Assembly: GCA_034723395.1 (NCBI GenBank)
Contig: JAYEOW010000016.1
Location: forward strand, 1 to 44,844
Source of the DNA: Candidatus Margulisiibacteriota bacterium
Lineage (GTDB): Bacteria > Margulisbacteria > WOR-1 > O2-12-FULL-45-9
Length of the DNA stretch: 44,844 nt
Direction: 5' to 3'
Each line of letters starts with the position of its first letter. Within the stretch, counting starts at the first letter, position 1. The translations under genes and the position numbers were made by a program. Shown here one piece after another: positions 1,865 through 27,861 of this stretch. The notes under the pieces were generated by a model that searched no databases, was not told the DNA's origin, and saw only the letters and a list, made by a program, of their open reading frames with translations.

Positions 1865-1892
1865 ATATCGTGTTAAAACGCCAAAAACTTGT
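1865..1892 (-). promoter_or_regulatory. sigma28/FliA-like promoter 1 (FliK-like/FlhB-C pair)
   Basis: ACAAGTTT-N12-CACGATAT. Confidence 0.75.
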
Positions 1893-11191: not shown

Positions 11192-11932
11192 TTAAAAGTA
11201 TTGTCTGATAAAATCAAGTACTCTTTGATTATAAAGACGCGGGTTTACCGTATAACAACTAAAATGATCTCCATTTTTAGCGGTCCATATATCTTTTGGG
11301 AAGCCAGCCTCTTCGTACAATTTATCAGCAGCTTCCACGGGAACATCCGTATCCTTATCACCATGAATAATCAGGATTGGACGGGGGGAAATTTTTCCTA
11401 CATAATTTATTGGGGCAATATCCTCGTCAATATTTAATTTCTTCTTAAAATCAGCAAGATATGCTTTCTGCTCTTGAGTACCCGGTAAAAGATATTTATC
11501 ACTAATTTTTATCCGAGCATGATTTTCGAATCGCGGATAAACACTTTCAGCAATGACCCCTTTTATTTTTTTAGACTCTGCAGCGGCAAAAATCACGGCT
11601 GCTCCACCCATTGAAACACCAAAACCTATGATCTTATCTTGATTTATATCTTCCCTATTTGTTAAGTAATTAACTGCCCCCGCAACATCAAAACGCTCAT
11701 TCCAGCCATATGAAAGCGGCGCCTTTTGGCTTTCGCCGCAGCCGCGAAAATCAAAAAGAAAAACATTTATGTTATTTGTGGTAAGAAAGGATGCGAGAGA
11801 TAAGAGCGGCTGATATATGTGGGAACTACCCTTAGGATGACAAATAATTACAGTCGGAGCGTCAGGATCTTTAGTCTCTAAATATCCGACTAAAGAGAAC
11901 CCATCAGAACTATTAAATCTAACTTTATTAAT
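11192..11932 (-). CDS. Alpha/beta hydrolase with no canonical start (ATT start, or frameshifted C-terminal half of 11932-12321)
   Basis: The frame stays open upstream of 11611 through the ATT at 11932: INKVRFNSSDG...VIICH...FDFRGCGES...GVSMGG...HGDKD...GDH (Ser-Asp-His triad). No in-frame ATG/GTG/TTG upstream of the GVSMG Met. Confidence 0.8.
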   Translation of the reverse strand: MNKVRFNSSDGFSLVGYLETKDPDAPTVIICHPKGSSHIYQPLLSLASFLTTNNINVFLFDFRGCGESQKAPLSYGWNERFDVAGAVNYLTNREDINQDKIIGFGVSMGGAAVIFAAAESKKIKGVIAESVYPRFENHARIKISDKYLLPGTQEQKAYLADFKKKLNIDEDIAPINYVGKISPRPILIIHGDKDTDVPVEAADKLYEEAGFPKDIWTAKNGDHFSCYTVNPRLYNQRVLDFIRQYF

Positions 11933-12321
11933 TAAACAACCGTTCCCGAACCTTCCCCTAATCCACCTGATTCTGTTGGTGGTTGAGAATTATCTGCAGT
12001 TGGCATTTTATCTGTGATTTGTCCTATTTTTCTATTCGCTTCATCTAATTGTCCTTGAAGCTTTTTTGCTCGTGGATCTCCCTGCACTCTCAACTGTTCA
12101 ATTCTTTTTGCAAGTTGCGCTACTTTTCTCCTAGCTGTTTCAATTTTTGCTTTCATAGTTCTTACGGTGTCTTTTTTAACTTCCTTGTGCATTTGGTCAA
12201 ATTGTTCGCTAACTTTTCTTCCCATACTGTTTAAATCTTTAATGACCTCATTCAACTGTTTTGTAATACTCTGATTCTGGTTCGCATTCCCTCCAATTCC
12301 TCCAACTTCTCCTATATTCAT
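11932..12321 (-). CDS. Hypothetical coiled-coil protein ending in a Gly/Ser/Pro linker
   Basis: AGGAGG RBS; MNIGEVGG start, heptad-rich body, tail PTADNSQPPTESGGLGEGSGTVV. Confidence 0.75.
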   Translation of the reverse strand: MNIGEVGGIGGNANQNQSITKQLNEVIKDLNSMGRKVSEQFDQMHKEVKKDTVRTMKAKIETARRKVAQLAKRIEQLRVQGDPRAKKLQGQLDEANRKIGQITDKMPTADNSQPPTESGGLGEGSGTVV

Positions 12322-12348: not shown

Positions 12349-13950
12349 CTAACACGCTTCCTGGATCGAAATTGCAATTTCATGTCCAGGCGCTTCAAAT
12401 CCCGTTTCTTCGGCAAGGCGCTCAAGAATCTCATGCGCCATTTTTCTCTTATTGGTTAAATAAGCAATTTCTCCTCGAGCTTCAATAGCCGTTTGAATTA
12501 ATCTAAATTCATCTTCGGCTTCGCGGAACATCTTGGTATTCGCCTTATCACGAATCTGGTCTAATTCGGTCTGAGATAACTTAACTCCGAGCTTTTCAAG
12601 GTTCTTTAATACGGTCTTAAGCTTACGCTCGGTCATCTTCCAGGCTACCCCCGATAGTTTAGCATAGGTCGCCCGCTCTTCAAATGCTTCGTTCAACATT
12701 TCAAATAATTTCACTTTGGCAAGCGCTTTTCCTTCGGTCTCGATCTCATCAAAGTTCTTAACCCCTAACTTGATCAATCCGTTCTGCATTTTAACCATCT
12801 TGATCTGGGTGGTCAACACGGTCCGCATATCCCCATAAACCGCCCTGCGCAGGTATAGCGCGCGCAGCTTATCGGTCAAGATATCCCGCTCTTCGTCGTG
12901 TGTATATTGGTAACGGTGCCCTTCGCGCTGATCACTGTTATTCGCGCTGGCATTAGCATTGGGCGCGTCTTCGAAATCGATGATCGCGTTAAGCCCCAGG
13001 TCATCTTTCATCTTAGGGATCTTTTTGACAAAATCGCCCACGTCAAATCCCACCTTCGAGCCAAGCTTGATCAATTCGCTGATCTCTTTTTCGACCGCCT
13101 TGCCGTCTTTCCCCAAAGATTTCTTCACAACCTCTTTAGAGATAGCGTCATCCAGGAAATCGCGCATATCGCGGTGAGAATCTTCTTTTACCCTATCAAC
13201 CGCTCCCTGAAGGTGGCCGTCCATACCGCCAAAGTCATATCCTCCGAGGTTATCGTTCATAAACGCGTAGTCGATAAATCCGTTCAGCTCTTTCTTTGCC
13301 AGAATTCCGGCCAGTGATTTAGTCCCGCTGAGAAGATGGTTAATATAAGCTTGTTTGATCTGTTTTAAAACTTCGGACCGGACACTATTGGCTACGCTGG
13401 CCTTGGTACTCTGCAGATCTTTTAAGGATACTCCCCGGTCGTTAAGCAGCTCATTTTCAATTTGCTCCAGCTTCTTTTTGGTCTGCGCTCCGCCGTTAAC
13501 CAGCATTTGCGAATAGGCGCCGATATAATCTTTAACCGTGGTCGCTTTTTGCGGAAGGGCCTCATCCCCGTCCGCCATCTGCTGGCCGCCATTCCGCCCC
13601 TGCTTCTGGTTCTTGGCCGCTTTTAAGATCGGATTACTGATATCAACCATATCCTGAGCGGCATCCTCTTTACCGTAAAGCAGTTCATACTCATTTTTGA
13701 GATTATTGAGAAGCTTATTGGTCGGCATTTTTCCGGCAAGTTTAGCGGCAAGGCCAACGAGAATGCCGGTCCCTACTTTCCCCTTTTTCCCGTCCAAAGC
13801 CTTCTTAAGCGCGCTCTCTTCAACCTTGGTAGCATTATCGGTATTGGCCTGTCGCTCCATCTCAGAGCGGAGGACCTGACCCAGGTTCTCAACCGCTGAA
13901 AGGTTGGACATAACCGCTAAATTCTGTTGACTTAGTTGTTCAATACCCAT
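12349..13950 (-). CDS. Hypothetical alpha-helical protein (533 aa)
   Basis: Long ORF tightly packed in the operon; no recognised family motif. Confidence 0.85.
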   Translation of the reverse strand: MGIEQLSQQNLAVMSNLSAVENLGQVLRSEMERQANTDNATKVEESALKKALDGKKGKVGTGILVGLAAKLAGKMPTNKLLNNLKNEYELLYGKEDAAQDMVDISNPILKAAKNQKQGRNGGQQMADGDEALPQKATTVKDYIGAYSQMLVNGGAQTKKKLEQIENELLNDRGVSLKDLQSTKASVANSVRSEVLKQIKQAYINHLLSGTKSLAGILAKKELNGFIDYAFMNDNLGGYDFGGMDGHLQGAVDRVKEDSHRDMRDFLDDAISKEVVKKSLGKDGKAVEKEISELIKLGSKVGFDVGDFVKKIPKMKDDLGLNAIIDFEDAPNANASANNSDQREGHRYQYTHDEERDILTDKLRALYLRRAVYGDMRTVLTTQIKMVKMQNGLIKLGVKNFDEIETEGKALAKVKLFEMLNEAFEERATYAKLSGVAWKMTERKLKTVLKNLEKLGVKLSQTELDQIRDKANTKMFREAEDEFRLIQTAIEARGEIAYLTNKRKMAHEILERLAEETGFEAPGHEIAISIQEAC

Positions 13951-13951
13951 C

Positions 13952-14998
13952 TTAGTTAGCCCCCATCAGTTCTGGAGATATCTTTCTTACCTTAGCGTAA
14001 CAACTCTTTGCCTTCTCTTTTTCGCCCTTTAATTCATACGCTTTGCCTAAAAGGAAGTTCGGCATCGCCTTGTTCTGATAAATATTTTCTACTTTTCCGT
14101 CTAATTTCATATTCAATATTTCGGTTAAGATCTCGATCGAGGTATCGATTTTTCCCGCCACTAAATAAATACTGGCAAATACGTTGCGGGCCGGAATATT
14201 TTTTGGGTCCAATTTAATTACCGCTTCGGCAGCCTTGGCCGCTTCAGAAAGTTTTTTCATCCTTAACAATAGATCGGCTTTTTTCTCCAAAGCCTGGCGA
14301 ACGATCTCCTTATCAGTTGATAGTTCGTGCGTTTTTGTATAGTGGACCAACGCCGCTTCGTCTCTTTTTAGCTCATTTAAGTTATTAGCCAAAAGGAAAT
14401 GAAGATAAGGATCATTCGGGGTCTTTTCCAAAGCTTTTGAATAGTGCTCTACATACCATTTTCTCTTTTCGTCCATTTTAGATTCTTCCAGGTTCTTCCC
14501 CCAATGATAGATAGCAACCGGAATATCTTCACCGGTGATCGTCTTTCCGCTTCCATCAACCAACTGCTCGTTTATCGGGCGGATAAAGTGATAACCGAGC
14601 CCATTCTTGAATACTTTGGCCCGCTTATAACCGCTCTTATTTTCACAGGTTCCAACCTTAGACTCATACATCGTAAGGGCAAATGCATCATACTCATTTT
14701 TTTCGATCAGCCCTCTTAACTCTTTCAGATCTTCTTCGCGCATATATTCATCGGCATCGATCCAGAGGATCCAATCGCCGGTTGCCGCTTTGATCGATTC
14801 GTTTCGAGCAGCCGAGAAATCGTTTACCCAAGGAAAATAAAAAACCTTTGCCCCATATTTTTCGGCAACCTTGATCGTATCGTCATTTGAACCGGTATCG
14901 ACCAAAATAATTTCATCCGCATATTTACTCAAGCCGGGGAGAGTTTTCTCCAGCATCTTTTTTTCGTTCTTTACGATCATACAAGCCGAAAGTTTCAT
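13952..14998 (-). CDS. GT2 glycosyltransferase with C-terminal TPRs (GmaR/flagellin-glycosyltransferase-like architecture)
   Basis: LSACMIVKNE, DTGS.D.T, W.NDFSAARN, WILWIDADE, then TPR-like helices. Confidence 0.9.
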   Translation of the reverse strand: MKLSACMIVKNEKKMLEKTLPGLSKYADEIILVDTGSNDDTIKVAEKYGAKVFYFPWVNDFSAARNESIKAATGDWILWIDADEYMREEDLKELRGLIEKNEYDAFALTMYESKVGTCENKSGYKRAKVFKNGLGYHFIRPINEQLVDGSGKTITGEDIPVAIYHWGKNLEESKMDEKRKWYVEHYSKALEKTPNDPYLHFLLANNLNELKRDEAALVHYTKTHELSTDKEIVRQALEKKADLLLRMKKLSEAAKAAEAVIKLDPKNIPARNVFASIYLVAGKIDTSIEILTEILNMKLDGKVENIYQNKAMPNFLLGKAYELKGEKEKAKSCYAKVRKISPELMGAN

Positions 14999-15009
14999 TC
15001 CATTGCTCC

Positions 15010-15396
15010 TTAGGCTGCCGCCTGCACTCTGACCGGTTCTACTTTTTTGAGTGCTCGGCGAACCTTCTTCTGGTCGCCTAATTCTTTATCTAACAGCGCT
15101 TCTACCTTTGCTAAATGCTTATCGCGCAAACTTTCGGCCTTACGGATATAACCGTGTAATTTCTCAAGCTTGATCAACAGCTCTTTTTTGTTGGTGCCGG
15201 TCATACTCATCTCGTATTCTAAATTTGCCCGCTCCATATAGAACTCGGTTAAGATCGTGCGAACCGCATCGAGCCCCATCTCTTCCATGGCTAATGGAGT
15301 ATAACGGTCTCTTACCCCTAATCTCTCGGCCTGGATCAGGAGCTGGCTCTCCAGCTCGTTAATTAATTTGATCTGTTTATTCTTCTTCTTGCTCAT
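15010..15396 (-). CDS. Hypothetical helical protein (128 aa)
   Basis: Start placed at the ATGA overlap with the upstream stop (MSKKKNK), with a GAGGTG RBS. Confidence 0.75.
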   Translation of the reverse strand: MSKKKNKQIKLINELESQLLIQAERLGVRDRYTPLAMEEMGLDAVRTILTEFYMERANLEYEMSMTGTNKKELLIKLEKLHGYIRKAESLRDKHLAKVEALLDKELGDQKKVRRALKKVEPVRVQAAA

Positions 15397-15923
15397 CCCA
15401 GCACCTCTAACATGCTCCAATCGTAGTGCATCTGGGCAAGTGAACCCTGGTTTTGCGTAATTAAATCCTGCCTGACTTCTTCTCTTAAAGTCTGAACATC
15501 TTTGGGTGACATCCCGGCGCGCATCAAAACTGAGGCATTGATCGAAGCGGTAAACTCCGCTACTTTCGCTATTAACCGGTTGAAGTGAAAACTATTTCCA
15601 TATGATTTTTTAAATAGATCGACAAACCTTTTTTTTAATCTAGTGAGGTGCCGTCGTAAAGCGGGGGCCTGCTCGGGAGCTTTTATTGCGGTAGGCAGAA
15701 CGACTGAACTGACAACCGCGGTATCCGGCTGGGAAAGGCCAATATGCTTTTTCCCCTTATTATCATCTACCGCTGTTTCCCACTTTAAGCTGGTAGTTCT
15801 TTCCGGCTCCTTAGTAACTTTTACCGCTTCGCCATTCGCTTCAGGATTTTCCTGCCCTGGCTTTGGCAAAACCACTGCATATTGTTTATTTAAGCCGGCA
15901 CCGAGTGATAATTCTGCACTCAT
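15393..15923 (-). CDS. Hypothetical protein (176 aa)
   Basis: First gene after promoter 2, AGGAG RBS; disordered N-half, helical C-half. Confidence 0.8.
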   Translation of the reverse strand: MSAELSLGAGLNKQYAVVLPKPGQENPEANGEAVKVTKEPERTTSLKWETAVDDNKGKKHIGLSQPDTAVVSSVVLPTAIKAPEQAPALRRHLTRLKKRFVDLFKKSYGNSFHFNRLIAKVAEFTASINASVLMRAGMSPKDVQTLREEVRQDLITQNQGSLAQMHYDWSMLEVLG

Positions 15924-15947: not shown

Positions 15948-15975
15948 ATATCGGGTTAAATAGGGGAAAACTTGC
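15948..15975 (-). promoter_or_regulatory. sigma28/FliA-like promoter 2
   Basis: GCAAGTTT-N12-CCCGATAT. Confidence 0.8.
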
Positions 15976-15983
15976 GCCAAAAC

Positions 15984-18083
15984 TTAGGATTTTTGCTTGT
16001 TTTTTTGGAGCCTTGCTTTGGTGTTCGAGGTGTGTTTTTTATACATGCGGGTGCGCATCTTTTGTAAAGCTCTCTGGAAGGCCTTTTTTTCATCAGATTT
16101 ACTCACATATCCTTGAGACGATTTTCCTCTCTGGGCCGCTTTTTTCTCCTCGGCTTTCCGCCTCTTTCTCGATTTTGCCGCCCGTTTCAGGGACTGTTTC
16201 TTCTCCCTGATCTCTTCTTGCTGCAGCTCTTCGATCTGATCAGCGTAATCGGTCTTATCTTGTTTATAACGAGAGCTAATAACCCGCTTAGCCGCACAGC
16301 GTTCCATAATCCTGACTATATCCATCTGCTCTCCCCACTTCAGGTACATCCCAACCGCATGGACCGCCCAGTTATTGGCGAATTCAGGTCCCTGGACAAT
16401 CGCGTTGTACGTTAATCCTTTAAATTGAGCGGTTGTATATTCAGGATGGTGCTCATCCCAGCCCGCGGCATTTTCGTTCATGCGCGAAAGGTGTCCGTAT
16501 AAAGAGTTGTGCAACCGGTCCAATTTATGGGTCCTCCGCCACACGTTCCCCTCTACCCCATTTTCAAGTCTTACATAATAATCTTTTGCCCATTTTCTAT
16601 CCCAACCATAGCTCTTGTACGAAGAGGTCGGCATTTTTACGGCAACAACCTTACTCCAGGAACCATAGCCATCACCGCTAGCCGGCATTGATCCAATGTA
16701 ATCCGACGTGGCAGAATCCAGGTTAACCCACTGCCACGAAGAAACCTCGTCTTGATAATTTTCCCAGATCGGCCTTCCATTTTCTACTTCAGTTGCCCCA
16801 AACCAATCATTAATTAAGGAATTAACCGCGTTATATTCGTCGCTACCTGAGTTATATTGGTCCCGATATGCATAAAGCATATTGGCCTCACTGTTGCTAT
16901 CTCCATTAAAATCTTTCCGGCCAAACCACTTCGATTGTTTCCAGAATATATCGCGGTCCATGTTTGATAATTCATGCCCATTGTTATAGCCCTTTTCATA
17001 AAAGGTGGTCACCCTGTTTTGAAAAGAGTGCTGCATATAGATAAACAACGGGAACATCGAAAGCGCATGATGGTTCATGTAAGGGTTATGCGAAAAGATA
17101 AAGTCATCAACGGAGTCGATCATCGCCTGGTCGTTTCGCGTATTCTCTACCGGTCCTAACATCGCCGACATCGCATACCAGGCACGTTCACGTGATTCGT
17201 ACATAGCAGCGGTGTATAACGCCGCTTCAGATGCGGTTAAATTATTATAAGATCCATCCAGCGCGATCTGATAATAACTCTTCCCGGCAAGATGGACATT
17301 GTTGTCCAGTAAGTTCTTTACATCAATCCACTCCTTTTTAATTGCTTTCAAAAAATCTTTCACAAAATATGCCTGGTCCGCGTCCTGCAATGCGGATTGG
17401 TTATCTTTTGAATGGTCGTTTTTCAGCATGATATGGTTCCACTCACCGGCGCTCATAACCATATTCACATTCCTAAAACGCCCCCCCATCCCGCTTCCCG
17501 CAAAACAACCGTTCGGATCCCCCGAACCGAAATTACCAAAAACTGGTGTGCGGTGGTGCTGGCCGGAGATCCAGTTGGTACGCCACTCGGTATAGCCGTC
17601 TTCACGTCCATTATCCTCTTCCCAGATAATCGTATCAGCATTGGTAATGCGGCCATCTCCGTTACGATCGGATAAAGCGGTCCGGGTAACAACGCCGTTG
17701 CCATCCTGTTCTTCTCCATAACCCCAAAGATCAATATCAGCCGCGTCAAAGTTGCCGTCCCCGTTCTTATCGGTCAATTCGTATTCATTAAAAGCATCCC
17801 ACCACTCCTGAGTAACCCAGGTCTTATCGTTGTCGGGGCCATGCTCAAAATAGACTGCTCCCTCGTCCCCCTCCTCCGCATTCATCTTGCCTGCATATGC
17901 CAGCTGCTCAAATTCGGGAAGGAACTTCATCATTTCCAAACCGAAGTTCCCGAGTTTGAGCAGGTCCTTATTCCCGGTAATAAAGTTGAGGAGATCGGGC
18001 CCCTGGGGAACAATACCTTTGCGGGGTTTACGACTTTTTAACAGGGTCAGGTTCGTAATGTGGGCATATTTGTTGTAAAACAT
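15984..18083 (-). CDS. Hypothetical protein with EF-hand/dockerin-like Ca-binding loops and basic coiled-coil C-terminus (699 aa)
   Basis: DKNGDGNFDAADI, DRNGDGRITNADT, DFNGDSN; W/Y/D/N-rich core; K/R-rich tail. Confidence 0.8.
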   Translation of the reverse strand: MFYNKYAHITNLTLLKSRKPRKGIVPQGPDLLNFITGNKDLLKLGNFGLEMMKFLPEFEQLAYAGKMNAEEGDEGAVYFEHGPDNDKTWVTQEWWDAFNEYELTDKNGDGNFDAADIDLWGYGEEQDGNGVVTRTALSDRNGDGRITNADTIIWEEDNGREDGYTEWRTNWISGQHHRTPVFGNFGSGDPNGCFAGSGMGGRFRNVNMVMSAGEWNHIMLKNDHSKDNQSALQDADQAYFVKDFLKAIKKEWIDVKNLLDNNVHLAGKSYYQIALDGSYNNLTASEAALYTAAMYESRERAWYAMSAMLGPVENTRNDQAMIDSVDDFIFSHNPYMNHHALSMFPLFIYMQHSFQNRVTTFYEKGYNNGHELSNMDRDIFWKQSKWFGRKDFNGDSNSEANMLYAYRDQYNSGSDEYNAVNSLINDWFGATEVENGRPIWENYQDEVSSWQWVNLDSATSDYIGSMPASGDGYGSWSKVVAVKMPTSSYKSYGWDRKWAKDYYVRLENGVEGNVWRRTHKLDRLHNSLYGHLSRMNENAAGWDEHHPEYTTAQFKGLTYNAIVQGPEFANNWAVHAVGMYLKWGEQMDIVRIMERCAAKRVISSRYKQDKTDYADQIEELQQEEIREKKQSLKRAAKSRKRRKAEEKKAAQRGKSSQGYVSKSDEKKAFQRALQKMRTRMYKKHTSNTKARLQKNKQKS

Positions 18084-18097
18084 AACTTAGTTATTGA

Positions 18098-18424
18098 TTA
18101 CGAAAACATGTTGTTTACTTGTCTCTGCAGGGTCATATCATGTTTTAACGCGTCTAAAAGGTTGTTAAAGATCAACCCCTGCTCTTCCTGCCACATCGTC
18201 ATCGCGGTATTCGCGGCAATCCCGTTCTTCTGGTCAGCCGTAAAATGGTACTGGCCAAAATTGAGGTCGGACTCTTCATTAACCAGGTCTTTCATCAAAT
18301 TAGTTAACTCACCTCTAAATCCCCTATAGAAATCGGCGACCTTATCACGGGTAACGGTCGAATTGATCTGATACCCGTCAACCTGAAGGGCGCTTAACGC
18401 TCCGGAATAAACATCTCCAATCAT
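18098..18424 (-). CDS. 108-aa helical protein, putative needle/inner-rod-like subunit
   Basis: AGGAGG RBS; C-terminus FNNLLDALKHDMTLQRQVNNMFS; aligns ungapped with its neighbour. The CDS is solid, the function is inferred. Confidence 0.55.
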   Translation of the reverse strand: MIGDVYSGALSALQVDGYQINSTVTRDKVADFYRGFRGELTNLMKDLVNEESDLNFGQYHFTADQKNGIAANTAMTMWQEEQGLIFNNLLDALKHDMTLQRQVNNMFS

Positions 18425-18457: not shown

Positions 18458-18513
18458 TTTAAGGGACCGCTGGTCCCCTAAATAAGGCAGGCCCCGGTCT
18501 CCCGGGGCCTTCC
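18458..18513 (-). other. Two tandem GC-rich RNA hairpins without a U-tract
   Basis: Minus strand AGGAAGGCCCCGG..CCGGGGCCTGCCT, then TTTAGGGGACC-AGC-GGTCCCTTAAA. Confidence 0.75.
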
Positions 18514-18518
18514 TATGG

Positions 18519-18845
18519 TTACATATTGAACTTGTTCATCGCGGTCTTAACCAGTTTGATCTGGTTTGTACCGATTCCTGATATGTTAGATACAGCAGTT
18601 TGAATCGCATCCTTAGCAAATTCTAAGAGCGCGACACCGCCAGTTCCTTGCAGTGAAGCTTCTTTTCCGCCCCACTGAATTGATCCTGCTTCGTGAGTTT
18701 CTGGGTCTCCATCCATAACTACGTCTGCAACTGCATCGTTGTCAGACACTTCATTAGCCGCAGTGATAACCTTATCTAAAAGATCCTGGTTACGCGCGTC
18801 CTGAAGGTTTAATGCGTCAACAACACTTCCTTGAAAATGGTCCAT
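18519..18845 (-). CDS. 108-aa helical protein, putative major needle/filament subunit
   Basis: Own sigma28-like promoter, AGGGGGTG RBS, downstream hairpins; C-terminus ALLEFAKDAIQTAVSNISGIGTNQIKLVKTAMNKFNM. The CDS is solid, the function is inferred. Confidence 0.55.
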   Translation of the reverse strand: MDHFQGSVVDALNLQDARNQDLLDKVITAANEVSDNDAVADVVMDGDPETHEAGSIQWGGKEASLQGTGGVALLEFAKDAIQTAVSNISGIGTNQIKLVKTAMNKFNM

Positions 18846-18887: not shown

Positions 18888-18915
18888 TTATCGGGTCGAG
18901 CGGGCAAAAACTTGC
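18888..18915 (-). promoter_or_regulatory. sigma28/FliA-like promoter 3
   Basis: GCAAGTTT-N12-CCCGATAA. Confidence 0.8.
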
Positions 18916-18916
18916 A

Positions 18917-19150
18917 TCAGACAACCATGTTTTGCTGCATCCCCGGGATGTTGCCGGTCGAGATCTGGGCGATCATGTTTTTAACGTCCTGAGGATCGAT
19001 CTTTAATTCGGGGCTCCCGCCAAGGTTCTTCGCGTCGAGCGCGCTTTTAACCCTGTCTCCCAGCTGGCCAAGTAAATTATTCCCTATCCCTTCCCGGGAT
19101 TCTTTTACCTGGCTGGTCAATTGTGAATTTATGTTAAGTCCTGTTTTCAT
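18917..19150 (-). CDS. Small hypothetical protein (77 aa)
   Basis: ATGA overlap with the upstream gene; fills the gap to promoter 3 exactly. Confidence 0.7.
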   Translation of the reverse strand: MKTGLNINSQLTSQVKESREGIGNNLLGQLGDRVKSALDAKNLGGSPELKIDPQDVKNMIAQISTGNIPGMQQNMVV

Positions 19151-19440
19151 TTGTTTAGATTATCGAACAACTGTTTGATCTTGCCGATCGATTCTTCGAT
19201 AATTTCTTCTTCGGCTTCGAGGAAGCTAAAAGGATCGCTGTGCAGCTCTTCTTTATTGCGGGTAAAGGCCAATGACGCGGCATTGCTCTCTTTTGCGATC
19301 TGCATTTTGGCCGCTTTTGCCACGCCGGCGATACTCTCGGCAAAGTTAGCCCCGTTTGTATTCTGGACGCTATTTACCGACTTTGCGGTCGATTTAACAT
19401 TTATTTCGTTATTATACGGTAATATACTTCCGATATTCAT
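19147..19440 (-). CDS. Small hypothetical protein (97 aa)
   Basis: Starts 1 nt after the giant gene's stop; MNIGSI N/S-rich start, NFAESI, acidic C-terminal helix. Confidence 0.75.
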   Translation of the reverse strand: MNIGSILPYNNEINVKSTAKSVNSVQNTNGANFAESIAGVAKAAKMQIAKESNAASLAFTRNKEELHSDPFSFLEAEEEIIEESIGKIKQLFDNLNK

Positions 19441-19441
19441 T

Positions 19442-22400
19442 TTAGGCTACCCCCGCTCCGCTCGTTTTAATACTGTTCTCTTCGCGAAGCGCATCTTCAT
19501 ATTGCTGCCGATAACTCTTCTTTACCTGGCTGCGGGCAATACCAGCCAATACACTAGGCGCGCGGTCTACCAATCCCGGCTTAGGCTGCTCTACTTCCCT
19601 TACGACATTCTCCATATCTTTTTGAACACGCTCTCTTCCCGCCCTAACAAACTTCTGAATAAAGGCAAGGATACTTGAACCAGGAGCTTCCTGGGACGCC
19701 TGAGCCCCCGCTTTTCTGGACGCCTCTCTAACCTCCGCTTTCTTAATATCTCTTTCTAATGATGTAATATCTTTCTGTAATCCCTGCAAATTAGCTCTTA
19801 AACCCTTAACCTCAGTTTCTACCCCTTTAATCTTTTGTTCAGCCAGTTTAATTCGATCGGTTATTTTCTGCTTAGCATGGATTAATAGTTTCTCTTGAGA
19901 TTCCACTGATTTTAACTGCACTTTTAACTTAGCAAGTAATACTTTATCCTGGGCAGTTAGTTTCTTCTTGGTTTGCAGAGCAAATATTTTCTTGCCGATT
20001 TCTGTCCTTTCACGCCGGAGCTGGCCGATCTGGACATCAGCCTGTTTCTGCCATGCCGCAACCTCAGCTCTGATCTTTGGCAGCTGAGTTTTTAAAGCGT
20101 TGAGCTCTTTTATTTTAACCGATAATTGTTTCTGGACCGCATCCCTCTTTTGTTTAAGCTGCACTAACTGCGCCTTAAGCTGCAGTGAGCTGGCCTTTGG
20201 AGCCGCCAGCCTTCTTTGCGGAACATATTTTTTAACTGCCACTGTCTTAACTTTTGAGCTTGAAATATGATTTGCAATCTGGTTTGCCTGCTTAAGCAGC
20301 GCCTGGGTCCTGGTATGAGTAGTTGTCCGGCTGCTCTGGTTTACCCGGTTCACATTAGTTGGAGTAGAAACCTTATTCGCCGCCGGGGCATTTAGGGCCG
20401 CGGCAGCCTGGGCGACCATCGGCGCTAATTTGGGGTCAAGCATCTCAACCTGTTTTAATATTTTAAGCGCGCGTTCTTTGGCAACCTTGCCTCCTCCCAA
20501 CTGATCTATTCCAGATTTGATCAAGGCTTTATTCGGCTGTTTAACTATGTACCAAGCAACATCACGGGCAGAATTTTTCGGATTATTTGCCATTGATTGG
20601 ACTTTTCTATTAAACGCGCTGATGTTGGTCTTCTCCGGAGTCTTTCTCAACCTTAAATAAGTGTCCGCGGAATTTTTCGCTTCGGACATAATGAAATTTG
20701 AGGTCTTTTCGCTCCGGGCAGCCACGTAACTAGCCTTCATATTCTCCTGGTCGATAAATGAGAGCGCTACTTGTGCTGCCTCGATATCAGCATCCATATT
20801 GTCCATTGAATTAAAATAATCCGAAGATTTCTGGGCAGACCGCTCTTTAGGGGCATCTGCTTTTTTAGCATTCTTGTTGTGTACCCCATCATAGGTAAGG
20901 TCAACCGTAATATCGATTAACCGGCTGGCTAGATTTAAGGCCGCGATAACCCGATTGAACTTACCAATATCCTTGCCAATCGTGGTCATATTCTTACCTT
21001 TAAAAAACGATCTTTTATCTTTTACCCAGAAGCTTTTCCCCTTGGTCAATATCTTGTGCTCCGCCTTCATCCGGGCATTATAGGCGCTTAATCCAATCGT
21101 AGCTAAGCTTACTGCCGTCCTAATAGATGATAAAATAACGCCGCTGATTGCCCCTTTGATCTGATTACGCCGTTCAATTATACTGTCTAGCGCGCCCTTT
21201 AACGAATCGAGCATCGAAAGGGCGACCGATTTATGGTCGTTAAGCGAATCTTTACCAAAGTCTTTGCGCGGCATGCTCTTACCCGAAAAGCGCGCTTTTG
21301 CCTGCGACTTGGCATCGGTAAGGATACTGCGGGCAACGGCAATCGCTTCTCTAACATTATATAAAGCCTTCATCCGGCCCGAGAGTTTCGAAGCTTCCGG
21401 GCTAACCATCATAAAGGTGCTGTCGATGCTCGTCATCAGCGAAGAGTTCATCTCCAGCATGATCTCGTATTCCATCTTATCCATCCTGGAATCAATACCT
21501 GCTTCGTTATTAACTCTGCGCCCGGTTTTATCTACGGTAGTTTTTGCTTCATACCCTTTTAAACTACCGTAATCATTTTTACCTAAGGTAATCGACGCGG
21601 TAATCAACGATGCTAATGAGTTGGTCAGTGACATTAATCCGCTGGTTAGTCCCATACATGCCTTATGAAATGTGATTAAACCTGAAGTTGTAGAATTAAG
21701 CGTGGCTGCTCCGCCAACCCCACCAACTATAGCAAACACCGCGTTAACCCCAAACGTAGCCGCGGCCATTTTCATCGCTTTTTCCTTGTCGCGGGCGCGG
21801 TTCATAACCTTTACTTTTTCCTGCAATGCCCTGACGATATTGCTGACCACCTTCATCGCGGTGCTGAAAGAGGCCTGGTTAGTAGATTTTGAAAGTTCGC
21901 CTTGAGTGCTTAAAGTCTGGCCGGTAAACTCCTGTTTTACGATCATCCGGAGCTCAGAAGATAGCGCTCTCGCCTTAGCCAGCGCCTCTTTTGCGGCATA
22001 GATCCTGCCGATCCGCGAATAGACGCTAGTTACCAGAGAGAAATTGACTCCGTAGTAACCGTCGCCGCTCGAAACGATCCCATGCTCCATTAACTCCTGG
22101 TAAGCTTTAAGTTCTATCGCGTCTAACTTTGCTTCGACCGATTTTGCCCCGCGAGAGCGGAGAATATTATCCAGATCTTCGCTTACAACATTAAATGCCC
22201 CTTTGATCTTGTTGTGGTCCCTGACCGCAGTGTACAATTGAAATGCAGCAGAAGATAATGCAGAAACAATCCCCATATACACTCCCCATAAAGCGGGACT
22301 GATTATATATCCAAGAACGGCGCCCAAAGCAGCGCCGGCAACCGAAATTGCCGCCCCTCTCATCGCATCTTTTGCCCCGATGTCGGCTTGCAGCTTCATA

Positions 22401-24958
22401 TTTTTAGCGATCACTACTTCCTGATGATGGAACTTGATCGCGGAGAGGAGCGTCTGCCGCTGCATCATAATATTTTCAACCGCGTTCTGCAGGAGCGCCT
22501 CCCCGGAATTAGCAGAAGAACTTCCGGTAAATTCAGAATCGGCGACCCTTCTAAGGTCTCGGCTGTTCTTGATCAGTGAGAAGATCGACCGGACCGCGTT
22601 ATCCATCATCTTCAGCTTCATCTCATAGGCGGCAAACTGCTTTGTATTTAAGAAATAGAAATCATCACCGGTCTGGCCAAGCATCCCGTTATTGTAGGCG
22701 GCCGCTCTTACCGTTGCCTTCTGCTCCATCTCGATCTCATCAAGCACATCTAAAATAGCATCCCCATGGCCTTTCTTCTCAGTGATCGGTTCGTTGTAAT
22801 GCGCTTCGATCGGATTATATTCCTTAATCCTCGAAGCTTCATAAGTCCCGATCGCGTTCATCAATCCGCCGGCAAGACCGCAAACCGCGGCAACCAGCAT
22901 TGCCATTGCCGGAGCTGTCGCACCGAGCGAGTAGATCGAAACTGCTACAGCGGCGATCGTTAAGACAACCGCGGCCAAGCGGAAAGGGCGCGCCCTTAAA
23001 AGCTGCTGGTAGTTCTTTAGTAATTGAACATTGGTATTATGGAGCTTGCTCTTTAACATCAGCTGAGAAGCGGTAGCGTCAAATACCTGGGTAGCGTGGC
23101 CAAGCGCGGATTCGGCGGACTGCATCAGCATTTCGGCGTCATTCTTGATCCCCGAAAGGCCGGTAAATTTCTCCCGGGCAATATTCCTCATATCCCTGCC
23201 GAGCATTTTGATCGACAGGTAAGAACGAATGCCATTTTGTGAAGCAACCAATCCACCGCGGTAATCCGCGAGCATCCCCTCAATATCAAGGGTCATATAT
23301 TCCGCACCTTCAGCAAAGTCGTACTCACTGCTATCCGCCCATTTCACAAAACCATATGCCATCCCGACGACCGGAATAAAAGATAAGACCGGCCCAAGAA
23401 CATATTGCCACTTGCCCGTCTTCTCAAGGAGTTCATTTAACTTATTGACACCCTTCTCAGTGCCTTTCGAAAGTTCTTCCAGGCCACGGCCAGCCCAGTA
23501 TCCGATGCTGTACTTACGGCCGGTTTTCGCGTACCATTCTCTCGAATCATTGTTCCACTGGCAAATCCACCAGACAACCACATCACCGACCTCCTGCATA
23601 AGCCGCCCGATCTTTTTCATCAAATCCAGCGCGATGCGCGGCAAGGCAGCCATGAAATCAGCCGCCACACTGCCAATTTTGAATATTTGCGCTAATCCCC
23701 ATAATACCCCGGTCTTCTCCATCGCCTTACAAACCGCGTTATTCATGCCGCTTATGGATGACCAGATCCCTTTCCAATCAAACTTTCCCAGGGATTTCCA
23801 GAACTTCTTGAAATTCTTCCGGAAGCCCTTTGGATTGTCCTTCTCGATCTTATCTAGATTCTTCTGGACCTCAGCCAGCCCCTTATCGACTTCCGCATTC
23901 ATCTCATCGATCTTAGCGCTGAATGCCTTTAAGCTCTTGACCATTCCCAGAGCCATCATGTTCATATCGCCGCTGGCAAAACACTGGGTGATCAGGGCAA
24001 TTACCGAGTTAATTACCCCCTGCATTGCAGCTAGGGTTTTCTGGGTCGTTTTATAATATTTCTCCGACTCCTTAAGCGCCATCCTGGTCTTCTTCATGTC
24101 GTTTTTGCCGCCGGTAAAGAAGTTCCCAACCTTATCGTACCACTTGTTGTACTTATTCTTGATCTTCGCCATTTTATCGTTGTATATCTTTAAATTATCG
24201 GTATTTATCTTCTCGAACAGCTTAGCGACCGCTACTTGAGACATCTTTTGAAGGATCCTGATCTTGCGGGCGAAGGTCTCTTTGTAGGAGTATTTATCAT
24301 CCTGGATCGGCTCGCCGGTAAACGCCTCTTCAACCAGCTTCTTGGTCTCGAACTGATTTCCAATCGCAATTAAAAGTGCGGCTAATATATTAGCGCGGGT
24401 TATGATATATTTTGTCCATTCTTCCAGCTTCTCAGGATCCGGCTCCCAGTAACCATCTTCATTCTGGACCATATAATCTTCTTCGGTAAATTCGAGCACT
24501 TTGTCAGTGAGGTCGCCGTCCAGGTTATCCGCGGTATCGATCGCCCCGCCCATTCCACTGGTTTCGTCACCGCTATCTGCCGGTGAGGTTCCATTGGTAC
24601 CGTTAGTTCCGCTGGCGCCATCGGCAGGATCGCTCGGGCTTGGATTTGGCGGTGGCGGAGGCGGAGGAGCCTCTTTGGTCTTTCCTCCGTTAACTAAATC
24701 ATGGTATTCGGAAGAGTTTTCGATATATTGTTCTTCAACCGCTTCCTGAACAGTTTTGGACTGCAAAGCCGCATTGGCCTGGGTGGAATTAAGAGGGGGT
24801 CCCGAGATCTGTGCTTTATCAGTTGCTTCCGCAATCGCTACTTCGAGGGTATCCGAAACAAGAAAATTAGGCTGCGCTCCGGCGCCCGCAAGCCGTTCCT
24901 CGGCTTCAAGCATAGCTCTTTGCAGCTCTATTACATTATTTACGTTTGGAGGATTCAT
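19442..24958 (-). CDS. 1838-aa helical repeat protein with multiple hydrophobic hairpins (translocator-like) and C-terminal coiled coil
   Basis: F(T/S)G-anchored repeats at aa 213, 598, 810, 1011 and 1224; G/A-rich hydrophobic pairs; poly-Pro N-region; no signal peptide seen. Confidence 0.8.
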   Translation of the reverse strand: MNPPNVNNVIELQRAMLEAEERLAGAGAQPNFLVSDTLEVAIAEATDKAQISGPPLNSTQANAALQSKTVQEAVEEQYIENSSEYHDLVNGGKTKEAPPPPPPPNPSPSDPADGASGTNGTNGTSPADSGDETSGMGGAIDTADNLDGDLTDKVLEFTEEDYMVQNEDGYWEPDPEKLEEWTKYIITRANILAALLIAIGNQFETKKLVEEAFTGEPIQDDKYSYKETFARKIRILQKMSQVAVAKLFEKINTDNLKIYNDKMAKIKNKYNKWYDKVGNFFTGGKNDMKKTRMALKESEKYYKTTQKTLAAMQGVINSVIALITQCFASGDMNMMALGMVKSLKAFSAKIDEMNAEVDKGLAEVQKNLDKIEKDNPKGFRKNFKKFWKSLGKFDWKGIWSSISGMNNAVCKAMEKTGVLWGLAQIFKIGSVAADFMAALPRIALDLMKKIGRLMQEVGDVVVWWICQWNNDSREWYAKTGRKYSIGYWAGRGLEELSKGTEKGVNKLNELLEKTGKWQYVLGPVLSFIPVVGMAYGFVKWADSSEYDFAEGAEYMTLDIEGMLADYRGGLVASQNGIRSYLSIKMLGRDMRNIAREKFTGLSGIKNDAEMLMQSAESALGHATQVFDATASQLMLKSKLHNTNVQLLKNYQQLLRARPFRLAAVVLTIAAVAVSIYSLGATAPAMAMLVAAVCGLAGGLMNAIGTYEASRIKEYNPIEAHYNEPITEKKGHGDAILDVLDEIEMEQKATVRAAAYNNGMLGQTGDDFYFLNTKQFAAYEMKLKMMDNAVRSIFSLIKNSRDLRRVADSEFTGSSSANSGEALLQNAVENIMMQRQTLLSAIKFHHQEVVIAKNMKLQADIGAKDAMRGAAISVAGAALGAVLGYIISPALWGVYMGIVSALSSAAFQLYTAVRDHNKIKGAFNVVSEDLDNILRSRGAKSVEAKLDAIELKAYQELMEHGIVSSGDGYYGVNFSLVTSVYSRIGRIYAAKEALAKARALSSELRMIVKQEFTGQTLSTQGELSKSTNQASFSTAMKVVSNIVRALQEKVKVMNRARDKEKAMKMAAATFGVNAVFAIVGGVGGAATLNSTTSGLITFHKACMGLTSGLMSLTNSLASLITASITLGKNDYGSLKGYEAKTTVDKTGRRVNNEAGIDSRMDKMEYEIMLEMNSSLMTSIDSTFMMVSPEASKLSGRMKALYNVREAIAVARSILTDAKSQAKARFSGKSMPRKDFGKDSLNDHKSVALSMLDSLKGALDSIIERRNQIKGAISGVILSSIRTAVSLATIGLSAYNARMKAEHKILTKGKSFWVKDKRSFFKGKNMTTIGKDIGKFNRVIAALNLASRLIDITVDLTYDGVHNKNAKKADAPKERSAQKSSDYFNSMDNMDADIEAAQVALSFIDQENMKASYVAARSEKTSNFIMSEAKNSADTYLRLRKTPEKTNISAFNRKVQSMANNPKNSARDVAWYIVKQPNKALIKSGIDQLGGGKVAKERALKILKQVEMLDPKLAPMVAQAAAALNAPAANKVSTPTNVNRVNQSSRTTTHTRTQALLKQANQIANHISSSKVKTVAVKKYVPQRRLAAPKASSLQLKAQLVQLKQKRDAVQKQLSVKIKELNALKTQLPKIRAEVAAWQKQADVQIGQLRRERTEIGKKIFALQTKKKLTAQDKVLLAKLKVQLKSVESQEKLLIHAKQKITDRIKLAEQKIKGVETEVKGLRANLQGLQKDITSLERDIKKAEVREASRKAGAQASQEAPGSSILAFIQKFVRAGRERVQKDMENVVREVEQPKPGLVDRAPSVLAGIARSQVKKSYRQQYEDALREENSIKTSGAGVA

Positions 24959-24967
24959 CTATAATAT

Positions 24968-24995
24968 ATATCGTGGTTTGAAGGGTAAAACTTGC
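24968..24995 (-). promoter_or_regulatory. sigma28/FliA-like promoter 4
   Basis: GCAAGTTT-N12-CACGATAT, 9 nt before the ATG at 24958. Confidence 0.8.
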
Positions 24996-25009: not shown

Positions 25010-26152
25010 TTATCTACGGGTATTAACCGACGGTTTTGGCGGTGCTGGAGGGACTCGGACGGGAATAGCTGGACCTCCGGCAGGCTGTGTTTTAGTTTGC
25101 ACCTTCATCGCATCCCGATTTTGCTTGATAAATGTCCTTAATTGGGTCGCGCTTGCGCCGCTTTTATACTCTGATACCAGTTTTTTAAACTTAGGACTCC
25201 CCGGGTTAAAATCGTCCATTATCTCAGCGTATCTCTCTCCAACCTTCCATTGCAATCCATTGATTATCTTTACGGTATTACTAAAAGCCTCAAAATCGGC
25301 CTTTGTAACCCCTTTTTTATCCCCTTTTTCTCCTAAGACAAACTTAGCAAACAACGTTCTTGTAAAGACGCGCGAAAGGAGCGGATCCTTGTGCAGGCCC
25401 TTAAGAACATCAACCGAGATGCTTTTCTTTAACGCGTGCAGGTAGAGCTTATTAAACAGCGCGGCTCCCATTAACCGGTTGAATTTCTTCTGCAATGCCG
25501 GGGTTAATGAATCATAACGCTCATGTAACTTACGTTCCAAATCCCGCCCTTTAAGCTTCTCTTTAAAGCCGCGATCTTTCAAATAGGCGAGAATTCGCTT
25601 GGCTTCACCTTTGTGCCAATGGAAAATTGCTTTCCTATTCCTATCCCTAGCCACAAATCCACGCATCTGGCGCGGAGCCGGGGTGATCGTTATCTCGGTA
25701 CAACCTCTGAAATATTCAAAATTGGTATTGGTAGCAATATAGAACTCTTCATAATGTTCAAAAGCCGAGAGCAGCCCGCGCTCACTATAGATCGGCGATC
25801 TACCGGAAAAGGCCTTCCATGCCGCATCGGTAATATTGGTATCAAAAGCTTTTTCAAAATTTTTTCTGGTAAAAGGTTTTCCATCTCGTTTACATCTCTC
25901 AAAAGCATCTTTTAATCGTGCCACTATCCCCATTCGGTCAAGGTCTTTTCCGCCGGTAACTTTAGAGTAAATCTCCGCAATTCTGGCCAACCGATCACTA
26001 AAAGATGTTCGTGTATTAGTAGGAAAAGCGGCAGTGTTTATTGGCGGCGGGGTTGCCCGTTTTGCCTGCGGCTCGACCGCAGGGGCCGGCTTCCGGCGCG
26101 GGGCCGGCGGCGGGATCTGTATTCTAGGTCTGGCTGCGCCTACTGCAATCAT
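25010..26152 (-). CDS. Hypothetical basic protein with Pro-rich termini (380 aa)
   Basis: Abuts the upstream stop, AGGTGG RBS; no recognised domain. Confidence 0.8.
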   Translation of the reverse strand: MIAVGAARPRIQIPPPAPRRKPAPAVEPQAKRATPPPINTAAFPTNTRTSFSDRLARIAEIYSKVTGGKDLDRMGIVARLKDAFERCKRDGKPFTRKNFEKAFDTNITDAAWKAFSGRSPIYSERGLLSAFEHYEEFYIATNTNFEYFRGCTEITITPAPRQMRGFVARDRNRKAIFHWHKGEAKRILAYLKDRGFKEKLKGRDLERKLHERYDSLTPALQKKFNRLMGAALFNKLYLHALKKSISVDVLKGLHKDPLLSRVFTRTLFAKFVLGEKGDKKGVTKADFEAFSNTVKIINGLQWKVGERYAEIMDDFNPGSPKFKKLVSEYKSGASATQLRTFIKQNRDAMKVQTKTQPAGGPAIPVRVPPAPPKPSVNTRR

Positions 26153-26783: not shown

Positions 26784-26811
26784 CTATCGTAACAACTTGC
26801 AAAAAACTTGC
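26784..26811 (-). promoter_or_regulatory. sigma28/FliA-like promoter 5
   Basis: GCAAGTTT-N12-TACGATAG, with a second GCAAGTT inside the spacer. Confidence 0.75.
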
Positions 26812-27801: not shown

Positions 27802-27833
27802 TTGACCCTCCTATTAAACATCCTACACCTTTA

Positions 27834-27861
27834 TTATCGTAGCTTGGGGGATAAAACTTGC
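27834..27861 (-). promoter_or_regulatory. sigma28/FliA-like promoter 6
   Basis: GCAAGTTT-N12-TACGATAA. Confidence 0.78.

Follow-up and report, generated by a model that had tools for sequence, protein, structure and literature searches.

We analyzed a stretch of 44,844 nucleotides (hereafter the window) that makes up positions 1 to 44,844 of contig JAYEOW010000016.1, from the assembly GCA_034723395.1 of a Candidatus Margulisiibacteriota bacterium. On its minus strand lies an uninterrupted frame of 1838 codons (19442..24958), which a first-pass annotation, made from the sequence alone, had located correctly and had described as a chain of cryptic repeats, each with a translocator-like hydrophobic hairpin. 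We will refer to its product as the giant. It has full-length relatives that are free of stop codons, at 30–45% identity, and the base composition of the gene is like that of the flanking DNA. The gene is the second in a ten-gene collinear operon of orphan genes. The finding is real, and it is more interesting than the first-pass annotation could have known: the giant is a strong candidate for what a flagellin-less type III machine of this bacterium exports or anchors.

The first 85 residues of the giant (24704..24958, on the minus strand like all coordinates of this gene) form a conserved, acidic, and non-hydrophobic N-terminus, as judged from invariant alignment columns, net charge, and hydropathy. 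This part may be an export or docking region. Residues 86–150 (24509..24703) are a variable linker whose sequence is rich in proline, glycine, serine, and threonine. Five related helical units of about 200 residues follow, characterized by G/A-rich hydrophobic hairpins. Unit 1 (residues ~151–375; 23834..24508) contains the motifs EDGYW and EEAFTG, a weakly hydrophobic stretch (309–340), and LDKIE. Between units 1 and 2 is a Trp/Lys-rich amphipathic insert (residues 376–545; 23324..23833), which has one hydrophobic segment (519–539) and is not a repeat unit. Unit 2 spans residues 546–760 (22679..23323; hydrophobic hairpin at residues 656–706, nt 22841–22993), unit 3 spans 761–962 (22073..22678; hairpin at 868–899, nt 22262–22357), unit 4 spans 963–1175 (21434..22072; hairpin at 1063–1126, nt 21581–21772), and unit 5 spans 1176–1400 (20759..21433; a hydrophobic segment at 1270–1292, nt 21083–21151). 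The rest of the protein, residues 1401–1838 (19445..20758), is a basic coiled coil, as indicated by its charge, its invariant C-terminal columns, and PDB matches to coiled coils only. This is the anatomy that the first-pass annotation had proposed, including the terminal basic coiled coil.

The repeats are anchored by F[TS]G motifs at F213, F598, F810, F1011, and F1224, with spacings of 385, 212, 201, and 213 residues. About 40 residues before each anchor, and always in register, is a related motif (EDGYW, GAEYM, GDDFY, GDGYY, and DSTFM). Near the ends of units 2–5 are LDEIE, LDAIE, MDKME, and MDNMD. These motifs had all been read correctly, and the LDKIE that closes unit 1 is an addition to them. 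There is also an extra, non-periodic FFTGG at residue 281.

In Smith-Waterman comparisons against 100 global shuffles, where aligning one hydrophobic stretch with another inflates z somewhat, five pairs of segments stood out, with z of 11.8 (U2/U3), 7.1 (U2/U4), 7.6 (U3/U4), 5.0 (U4/U5), and 6.7 (U1/U4). The remaining 23 of the 28 pairs, which include U2/U5, U3/U5, U1/U2, U1/U3, and U1/U5, had z of at most 2.8. Because global shuffling favors segments that share a hydrophobic stretch, we also compared profiles of the units, cut from the family alignment of 12 members, with hhalign. This gave 93.9% for U2–U3, 95.1% for U2–U4, 96.6% for U3–U4, and 97.8% for U4–U5, all of them in register over 108–149 columns. 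The other pairs were weaker (64% for U1–U4, 49% for U1–U3, 35% for U2–U5, and 25% for U3–U5). Comparisons of a unit with the non-repeat parts of the protein (the N-terminus, the insert at 376–545, and two C-terminal blocks) all gave 1% or less. Self-comparison thus gives the proposed repeats statistical support: judging from these alignments, units 2–5 are repeats beyond chance, and unit 1 probably belongs to the same family.

We found no signal-peptide-like hydrophobic segment at the N-terminus of the giant, by inspection of the sequence and its hydropathy and without a signal-peptide predictor. The first 150 residues are polar and have a net charge of −18, and the stretch at 185–203 peaks at only 1.46 in Kyte-Doolittle hydropathy. 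Clear hydrophobic segments come late in the chain: residues 309–327 are weakly hydrophobic, and they are followed by 519–538 and then by the hairpins, from residue 656 on. A hydrophobic segment recurs at the alignment position of residues 656–708 in 12/12 relatives, and the other hairpin segments recur in this way in 8 to 10 of the 12. In most relatives, the unit 2 hairpin is strongly hydrophobic (Kyte-Doolittle up to 2.9). For the best 19-mers of the giant itself, additive Hessa free energies are nowhere below 0 (the range is 0.05–3.9 kcal/mol), which weakly favors a secreted protein but is not decisive. At the other end of the protein, the C-terminal ~440 residues have a net charge of +46 and their sequence matches are coiled coils only (such as myosin or SMC), and the last ~30 residues are conserved in the family alignment.

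Units 2–4 each have a coiled-coil region and a two-helix hydrophobic hairpin, while unit 5 has one hydrophobic segment. We built an AlphaFold2 model of residues 546–1400 (855 residues) from 25 sequences (pLDDT 69.6, pTM 0.62). In the model, two strands form a mini-hairpin at the aromatic motif of each unit. A helix of ~40 residues comes next, up to a break at FTG, after which a helix of 65–75 residues runs into the first G/A-rich hydrophobic segment and is followed by a short turn and the second hydrophobic helix. In unit 2, the predicted helices are H63–131 and H138–164. Helical hairpins with hydrophobic tips are a classical device of soluble proteins that enter membranes.

Searches with the models of Pfam, NCBIfam, and PHROG (the first two at E ≤ 0.01) did not place the giant in a family and gave just one chance row, at 0.0035, and the giant does not match any of the Pfam or NCBIfam models for SctE/SctB translocators. 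Also, neither the giant nor any other protein of the operon contains a Flg_bb_rod, Flg_bbr_C, Flagellin_N/C, or FliD domain. A profile search of PDB sequences gave only coiled-coil matches to the C-terminus, and searching the PDB sequences with residues 546–1175 and phmmer gave only two chance rows (E of 3.5 and 4.9).

Comparisons of folds gave a similar picture. Foldseek found nothing in the PDB at E ≤ 0.001 with the 855-residue model. In a wider structural search, where Z of about 13 is required for helical proteins, the best hit had Z = 10.0 and the hits were generic helical hairpins only. Residues 74–224 of IpaB (3u0c) had Z = 9.0, with 123 aligned residues at a root-mean-square deviation (rmsd) of 4.6, and another IpaB structure (5wkq) had Z = 8.8; both are level with unrelated helical hairpins, of which there are dozens. 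No toxin of the ClyA, Hbl, or MakA type was among the 50 rows of this search. MakE (6w08) matches only the C-terminal coiled coil, with E = 8e-4, which is the level expected of coiled coils. In BFVD, tape-measure and minor tail proteins rank first, but only at noise level (best E = 9.3e-3, TM of 0.11, rmsd of 43), which is what any two long helical models give each other. A language-model atlas gave scores of at most 0.85, under the level of 0.9, so we consider its matches to be leads only; one is an N-terminal RTX hemolysin domain at 0.79. The likeness of the units to an SctE/SctB translocator or a pore-forming toxin, as claimed in the first-pass annotation, therefore has no support from homology or fold, although the promoter and the type III context agree with it. 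In other words, the translocator idea gains from the genomic context and not from the resemblance that was cited for it. The chain may form a concatenated multi-subunit pore, as the first-pass annotation suggested.

The context begins at the left end of the window, which encodes a FliK-like protein (499-1779, minus strand; Flg_hook with E = 3e-5) and a protein similar to the C-terminal part of FlhB (154-492, minus strand; Bac_export_2 with E = 1.7e-20). Because of these two proteins, we examined the whole genome (1.68 Mb, 97% complete) for flagellar genes. One contig encodes FlhA, FlhB, FliR, FliP, FliO, FliN, FliM, a 271-amino-acid protein similar to FlgE/G, and a second FliK-like protein. 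Another contig encodes FlgF, FlgG, FlgA, FlgH, FlgI, a sigma factor similar to FliA/WhiG, FlgB, FlgC, FliE, FliF, FliI, and FliJ. The FliA-like sigma factor has 246 amino acids, is encoded between flgI and flgB, and matches TIGR02479 (FliA/WhiG) with E = 2e-39 and 135.6 bits, as compared to the curated cut-off of 189.6. FliG is encoded on the same contig as this sigma factor, as a fragment of 154 amino acids with the N and M parts only. In six-frame family searches, we did not find Flagellin_N, FliG_C, MotB_plug, FlgM, FliS, or FliD_C in this genome; each of these models matched in 3 or 4 control genomes. The genome encodes just three Flg_bbr_C domains, all of them in rod proteins.

To see how typical this is, consider the phylum: FlhA is found in 135 of the 146 genomes and flagellin in 15 of them, and in the window's class the corresponding numbers are 62/65 and 1/65. 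Most of the genomes with flagellin show two matches to FlhA. In a tree of 20 FlhA sequences, each of the five flagellin-bearing genomes that were sampled has one copy of the phylum-wide type and one copy in a separate clade. Both clade splits have support of 100/100, and the clades are 2.3 changes per site apart (with a midpoint root and no outgroup). From the distribution of FlhA and flagellin and from this tree, the common machine of the phylum is conserved, as opposed to a flagellum that is decaying in a few lineages. It is a flagellin-less, apparently non-rotary type III apparatus, and in the flagellated members it co-exists with a second, complete set of flagellar genes.

The giant is linked to this apparatus by its promoter. 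While reading the intergenic DNA of the operon, we saw a box four times. In its strict form, [AG]CAAGTTT-N14-CGATA, this motif has 22 matches in the 1.68-Mb genome, versus 0 in each of 10 genomes that were simulated with a first-order Markov model; a looser form has 44 matches, versus 1–8 in 20 shuffles. For 21 of the 22 sites, an open reading frame (ORF) of at least 50 codons starts on the same strand no more than 400 nt downstream, and the 22nd site is at the end of a contig. Six of the 22 are in the window, and all six are on the gene strand just upstream of ORFs. The site before the giant (24969..24995, minus strand) reads GCAAGTTT-N14-CGATA, and its CGATA ends 10 nt before the ATG. The others are before the gene for a PorV-like protein (27835-27861, on the gene strand); before a 123-amino-acid ORF, a 75-amino-acid ORF, and the 380-amino-acid gene (26785..26811, minus strand); before the first of two 108-amino-acid genes (18889..18915, minus strand); before the 176-amino-acid gene (15949..15975, minus strand); and before the FliK-like and FlhB-C-terminal-like genes (1866..1892, minus strand).

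The box is also conserved. Of 12 orthologous loci, nine have it within 80 nt of the giant's start, even at protein identities of 20–30%. In G089 and G129, by contrast, over 1.5 kb separates the start from the nearest upstream site, which in G129 is just before the previous gene, and G136 has no site nearby. The giant is likely to be a member of the regulon that the motif defines.

The consensus for sigma-28 promoters is TAAAGTTT-N11/12-GCCGATAA, and CGATA at −10 and AAGTTT at −35 are hallmarks of FliA-type promoters. The motif directly upstream of the giant resembles this type. Also, the flagellin gene of a flagellated relative (L074) carries TAAAGTTT-N13-CCGATAT, which has the same spacing as the giant's box. 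The FliA-like sigma factor may well be what recognizes the motif. The contigs that carry the clusters for the basal body and the export gate, C46 and C55, have none of the 22 sites (0/22), which is what one would expect of a motif for late genes.

No Shine-Dalgarno sequence precedes the giant, and the spacing between CGATA and ATG is equal in L001, L002, L004, and L006. Given this and the 10 nt between CGATA and ATG, the 5.5-kb mRNA probably has no leader, or almost none. Its first 113 nt do not fold any better than shuffled sequences (z = −0.16). A look-up of sequencing runs that contain this stretch listed no RNA run and a single DNA run, which may be the source of the window.

Most of the other sites precede genes that lack Pfam families, including genes for proteins of 768, 952, 1152, 1911, and 3665 amino acids. 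Outside the window, motif matches mark the regulon on other contigs of this genome at C3 8934-25989, C22 5905-11763, C31 9565-20860 and 29522-30097, C11 14496-16001, C19 30116-31197, C29 30449-30696, and C44 23699-25942, as well as on C4, C6, C15, and C54. Using BLASTP, we found no significant similarity between the giant and the regulon's proteins of 3665 and 1911 amino acids.

Six ORFs of at least 60 amino acids in the genome start with MN[IPV][GP] at the first ATG, and five of these are regulon genes: the giant (24958), the 97-amino-acid gene that follows it (19440), a 129-amino-acid gene (12321), the gene for the 3665-amino-acid protein (C3 14992), and a 66-amino-acid gene (C29 30649). The pattern was chosen after seeing the genes, so we treat it as a lead for a possible export signal.

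The family of the giant is confined to Margulisbacteria and Saganbacteria and has no described relative. A word-index search with the giant found three clusters only. An exhaustive search with residues 546–1400 found 77 cluster representatives at E ≤ 1e-3, of which 38 had E ≤ 1e-30, and most of the representatives have 1300–2400 amino acids. Of ten clusters that we checked, three carry NCBI records that are titled as Candidatus Margulisiibacteriota proteins, a fourth carries an unplaced 'hypothetical protein' from JGI, and six are nameless; the sole locus that we found on a genome contig is in a metagenome-assembled genome of Candidatus Saganbacteria. Within the phylum, the family is present in 45/146 genomes: 44 are among the 65 genomes of the window's class, and one is among the other 81. 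Across the class, the gene is single-copy, vertically inherited, and found in a fixed neighborhood of housekeeping genes. Among 22 relatives that we scanned, four (P0008, P0054, P0064, and P0066) have a transglutaminase-like core, of the cysteine-protease type (PF01841/PF04473), at about residues 120–280; this is the N-terminal linker region, which is of low complexity in the giant. Secreted effectors often carry enzyme-like cores of this kind.

The collinear block encodes, in order, proteins of 380 amino acids, the giant, 97, 108, 108, 699, 176, and 136 amino acids, a glycosyltransferase of family GT2 with tetratricopeptide repeats (TPR), a 533-amino-acid protein, and perhaps a protein of 129 amino acids. 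In all cases, ispF-pdxJ-rpiB and a nucleotidyl-transferase gene are upstream of the operon, whose gene order is kept in five closer distinct loci (L005 is a duplicate of L001) and in seven genomes from distant members of the class. Except for the glycosyltransferase, its members do not belong to any family in Pfam or NCBIfam, and a Pfam scan of 40 homologs from eight of the operon's families, at E ≤ 0.05, gave only scattered weak rows that did not recur. In a Kyte-Doolittle window scan, no operon protein had a hydrophobic N-terminal segment, except for the PorV-like protein at the upstream edge. Several of the proteins begin with polar N-termini that are rich in asparagine, glycine, and proline.

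The 380-amino-acid protein (25010..26152, minus strand) is proline-rich at both ends and has no family; its syntenic homologs are 24–27% identical. The 97-amino-acid gene (19147..19440, minus strand) has its ATG 1 nt after the stop codon of the giant, and its product has an N/S/Q-rich N-terminus and a conserved acidic helix at the C-terminus. The first 108-amino-acid protein, or 'a' (18519..18845, minus strand), has its own promoter and its own terminator (18489-18510), a hairpin of −25.7 kcal/mol (z = −3.3). The C-terminal half of the protein hardly varies: ASLQGTGGVALLE[FY]AKDAIQTAVSNI. A promoter together with a strong terminator is the layout expected for the gene of an abundant structural subunit. 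The second, or 'b' (18098..18424, minus strand), has no family according to the Pfam scan.

Farther downstream, the 699-amino-acid protein (15984..18083, minus strand) has no family and a very basic C-terminal tail. It contains two loops of the type DxNGDG, which resemble calcium-binding sites (EF-hand or dockerin-like), and it ends with ~90 residues that are rich in lysine and arginine. The 176-amino-acid protein (15393..15923, minus strand) also has no family, and the 136-amino-acid protein (15010..15420, minus strand), which probably has 128 amino acids, is 54–69% identical to its relatives. The glycosyltransferase (13952..14998, minus strand) is a fusion of GT2 (PF00535, E = 1e-25) and TPR families, with a SunS-like match. 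The TPR repeats of the operon occur only as its tail, and a match to SctY has 40.8 bits, versus a cut-off of 70. TPR-bearing glycosyltransferases of this kind modify flagellins.

The 533-amino-acid protein (12349..13950, minus strand) is all-helical and is the best conserved member of the operon. It is found in 127 of the 146 genomes of the phylum, including 71 of the 72 high-quality ones, so its spread is comparable to that of FlhA. Its AlphaFold2 model (pLDDT 62.7, pTM 0.37) gave nothing at E ≤ 0.001 with Foldseek and a best Z of 7.7 in the wide search, and the language-model atlas gave no usable match. The 129-amino-acid coiled-coil protein (11932..12321, minus strand) is possibly encoded by the last gene of the operon, and we found no homolog of it in the related loci. 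Directly upstream of the operon is a gene for an outer-membrane barrel with a signal peptide that is similar to PorV/PorQ (26917-27861; NF033709 with E = 4e-12, below the cut-off). This gene is syntenic in several relatives and is preceded by a sigma-28-like box.

How might these observations fit together? We tentatively propose, at somewhat short of an even chance, that the giant is a late substrate of the flagellin-less type III machine, which exports it, and that its hairpins insert into a membrane. Such a role is plausible given the conserved sigma-28-type promoter, the regulon of orphan genes, and the flagellin-less export machine. The giant would be the product of a late-class gene (with a sigma-28/FliA-type promoter) and would belong to an export apparatus that is derived from the flagellum. 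The unfolded chain would leave the cell N-terminus first, through the gate formed by FlhA, FlhB, and FliPQR and through the rod. Outside the cell, the helical hairpins would push their hydrophobic tips into a membrane, which could belong to a partner or prey cell or be the outer membrane of the bacterium itself. There, at the distal end of the apparatus, the giant would act as a single-chain translocon or membrane anchor; with five hairpins in one chain, it could do so without oligomerization. Besides the class of the promoter, the points that favor export are the polar N-terminus without a signal-peptide-like segment, the partners that lack hydrophobic N-termini, the glycosyltransferase with TPR, and the enzyme-like inserts in some relatives. 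Also, the gate must export something.

Several observations weigh against this proposal. First, we found no link by homology or fold to a translocator or pore former. Second, sigma-28 regulons also hold membrane proteins that are not exported, such as MotA/B and chemoreceptors, and the hydrophobicity of the unit 2 hairpin in the relatives would suit ordinary co-translational insertion into the inner membrane. Third, a few of the motif sites precede housekeeping units (hisS and tuf). A gene for a 222-amino-acid sigma factor, similar to RpoH/RpoS, is downstream of one site, and this sigma factor could be the reader of the motif. A scan for sigma-70-like sites, with 37 found versus 27.5 ± 5.9 expected, also picks out a weak one (9/12) in the promoter region of the giant. 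Among the upstream regions of 15 flagellin genes from flagellated relatives, only one has AAGTTT-N13-15-CGATA; a loose TAAA-type pattern is in 7/15, a count for which the chance rate was not computed. Finally, the family is in 45 genomes of the phylum, as compared to 135 for the export gate.

A more elaborate form of the proposal, which we consider unlikely, is that Margulisbacteria have a third kind of type III machine, a non-rotary and flagellin-less derivative or sister of the flagellum that has a rod, L/P rings, a FliA-type regulon of its own, and orphan substrates. The giant would be its distal, membrane-inserting translocon, with five fused translocator-like units in a single chain, and the small neighboring proteins, above all the 108-amino-acid protein whose gene has its own promoter and terminator, would form an external conduit that is glycosylated by the GT2-TPR protein.

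The main rival is that the giant stays in the cell, as a scaffold in the inner membrane. Its hairpins would be inserted by the signal recognition particle, Sec, and YidC, its helices and coiled coil would be cytoplasmic, and the protein would anchor or organize the type III apparatus or another structure of the envelope. It would then be a late-class component that is not exported and that is regulated comparably to MotA/B. We consider this rather unlikely. In its favor, the two flanks of a hairpin are predicted from the sequence to be on the same side, with lysine and arginine in the flanks and no charge in the turn, and the strongly hydrophobic unit 2 hairpin of the relatives, the basic C-terminal coiled coil (net +46), the large size (1838 amino acids), and the membrane proteins in sigma-28 regulons also speak for it. 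On the other hand, a resident scaffold would not account for the acidic and polar first 150 residues and the late appearance of clear hydrophobic segments, and most hairpins of the giant are only marginally hydrophobic. It also fits poorly with the small operon partners that have polar N-termini and no hydrophobic N-terminal segment, one of which resembles a major secreted subunit in that its gene has a promoter and a terminator to itself, or with the enzyme-like N-terminal core in some relatives.

Alternatively, the giant could shape membranes, mediate attachment, or be similar to a cytoskeletal protein, outside of type III export altogether. The motif would then mark a broader regulon for stress or stationary phase, read for instance by the 222-amino-acid sigma factor, and the flagellar link would be incidental. 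The sites before the hisS and tuf units and before the cluster that holds the gene for this sigma factor are consistent with this idea, and so is the absence of flagellar or secretion families from the operon. The operon is also ~10 kb away from the FliK-like gene, with housekeeping genes in between. However, CGATA and AAGTTT are characteristic of FliA-type promoters (compare L074), the same motif precedes the FliK-like/FlhB-C-like pair, and its absence from C46 and C55 is as expected of a motif for late genes. We consider this explanation to be decidedly unlikely.

It is very improbable that the giant is a pore-forming toxin with no tie to the flagellar machine, one that is secreted in a different way (type I secretion or lysis). 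Alpha-pore-forming toxins do use helical hairpins with hydrophobic tips for insertion, and the RTX hemolysin lead from the atlas would fit, although it is below the 0.9 level. But the giant has no RTX repeats, neither the operon nor the window contains genes for type I secretion, and most toxin genes are unlike this one, which is single-copy and vertically inherited in a fixed neighborhood. As for a tape-measure protein of a phage or prophage, which the first-pass annotation had named as one best match that would count against a pore, the length, the helices, the hydrophobic segments, and the noise-level BFVD rows are all that speak for it, and the genomic context effectively refutes it: there is no PHROG or Pfam tape-measure match, there are 0 viral relatives in 2.9 million viral contigs (52 candidate stretches), there are no phage or tail genes nearby, the base composition equals that of the flanks, and throughout the class the gene keeps its place between ispF-pdxJ-rpiB and the remainder of the operon.

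If the giant is indeed a late substrate that inserts into membranes, then a family of giant orphan proteins would have a function. The giant would be the cargo or the distal part of a flagellum-type machine that a phylum next to the Cyanobacteria has kept without flagella. It would also be a natural translocon that arose by repetition within a gene instead of by oligomerization, and it would bear on the relationship between the flagellum and the injectisome. The 22 motif sites, most of which are before orphan genes, provide a ready list of candidate substrates.

In the searchable literature on Margulisbacteria and Saganbacteria, supplements excluded, we did not come across flagellar or type III genes; this includes PMC6349859, 10.1101/568287, and PMC8382752. 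In the main text of PMC6349859, the terms 'flagell', 'secretion', 'motil', and 'pili' occur 0 times. In the preprint on Trichoplax symbionts (10.1101/568287), the passages on secretion systems concern the other symbiont.

It is useful to compare the giant to known systems. Like phage tape-measure proteins, it is very long and mostly helical, with G/A-rich hydrophobic segments of the kind that enter membranes, but it does not share a family, a phage context, or a viral relative with them. Also among the closest known systems are the SctE and SctB translocators (IpaB, YopB, SipB, and PopB; IpaC and YopD). They share with the giant a coiled-coil hairpin, a hydrophobic helical hairpin, and the absence of a signal peptide, and by analogy the giant is suspected to take the route through a type III gate and to insert its hairpins into a target membrane. 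Unlike the giant, which links five units in 1838 amino acids, SctE and SctB are two oligomerizing proteins of 300–600 amino acids. The giant has no sequence similarity or significant fold similarity to them, its associated machine is of the flagellar type and not an injectisome, and we did not recognize a chaperone of the SycD/IpgC type for it.

The Inc proteins of chlamydiae are type III substrates without signal peptides, and they combine long coiled coils with a bilobed hydrophobic hairpin whose flanks are on one side. In contrast to the giant, they have one hairpin and are much smaller; they are not homologous to it, and no host-vacuole context is known for the giant.

Flagella can also export non-flagellar proteins. 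The alpha-pore-forming toxins MakA/B/E of Vibrio and the proteins Cia and FlaC of Campylobacter are exported in this way and are regulated as late genes, and, like the giant in the proposed reading, they are helical and act on membranes. The organisms with Mak, Cia, or FlaC still build a filament, whereas the giant's machine lacks flagellin, and the giant is built from repeats and is four to five times larger than these proteins. Filament-less basal bodies are found in Buchnera, which has kept the gate, the rod, and the rings without flagellin, and which has been proposed to use them as protein exporters. But the basal bodies of Buchnera are a product of reductive decay in an endosymbiont, while the machine of the Margulisbacteria is found across the phylum and has its own regulon of orphan proteins.

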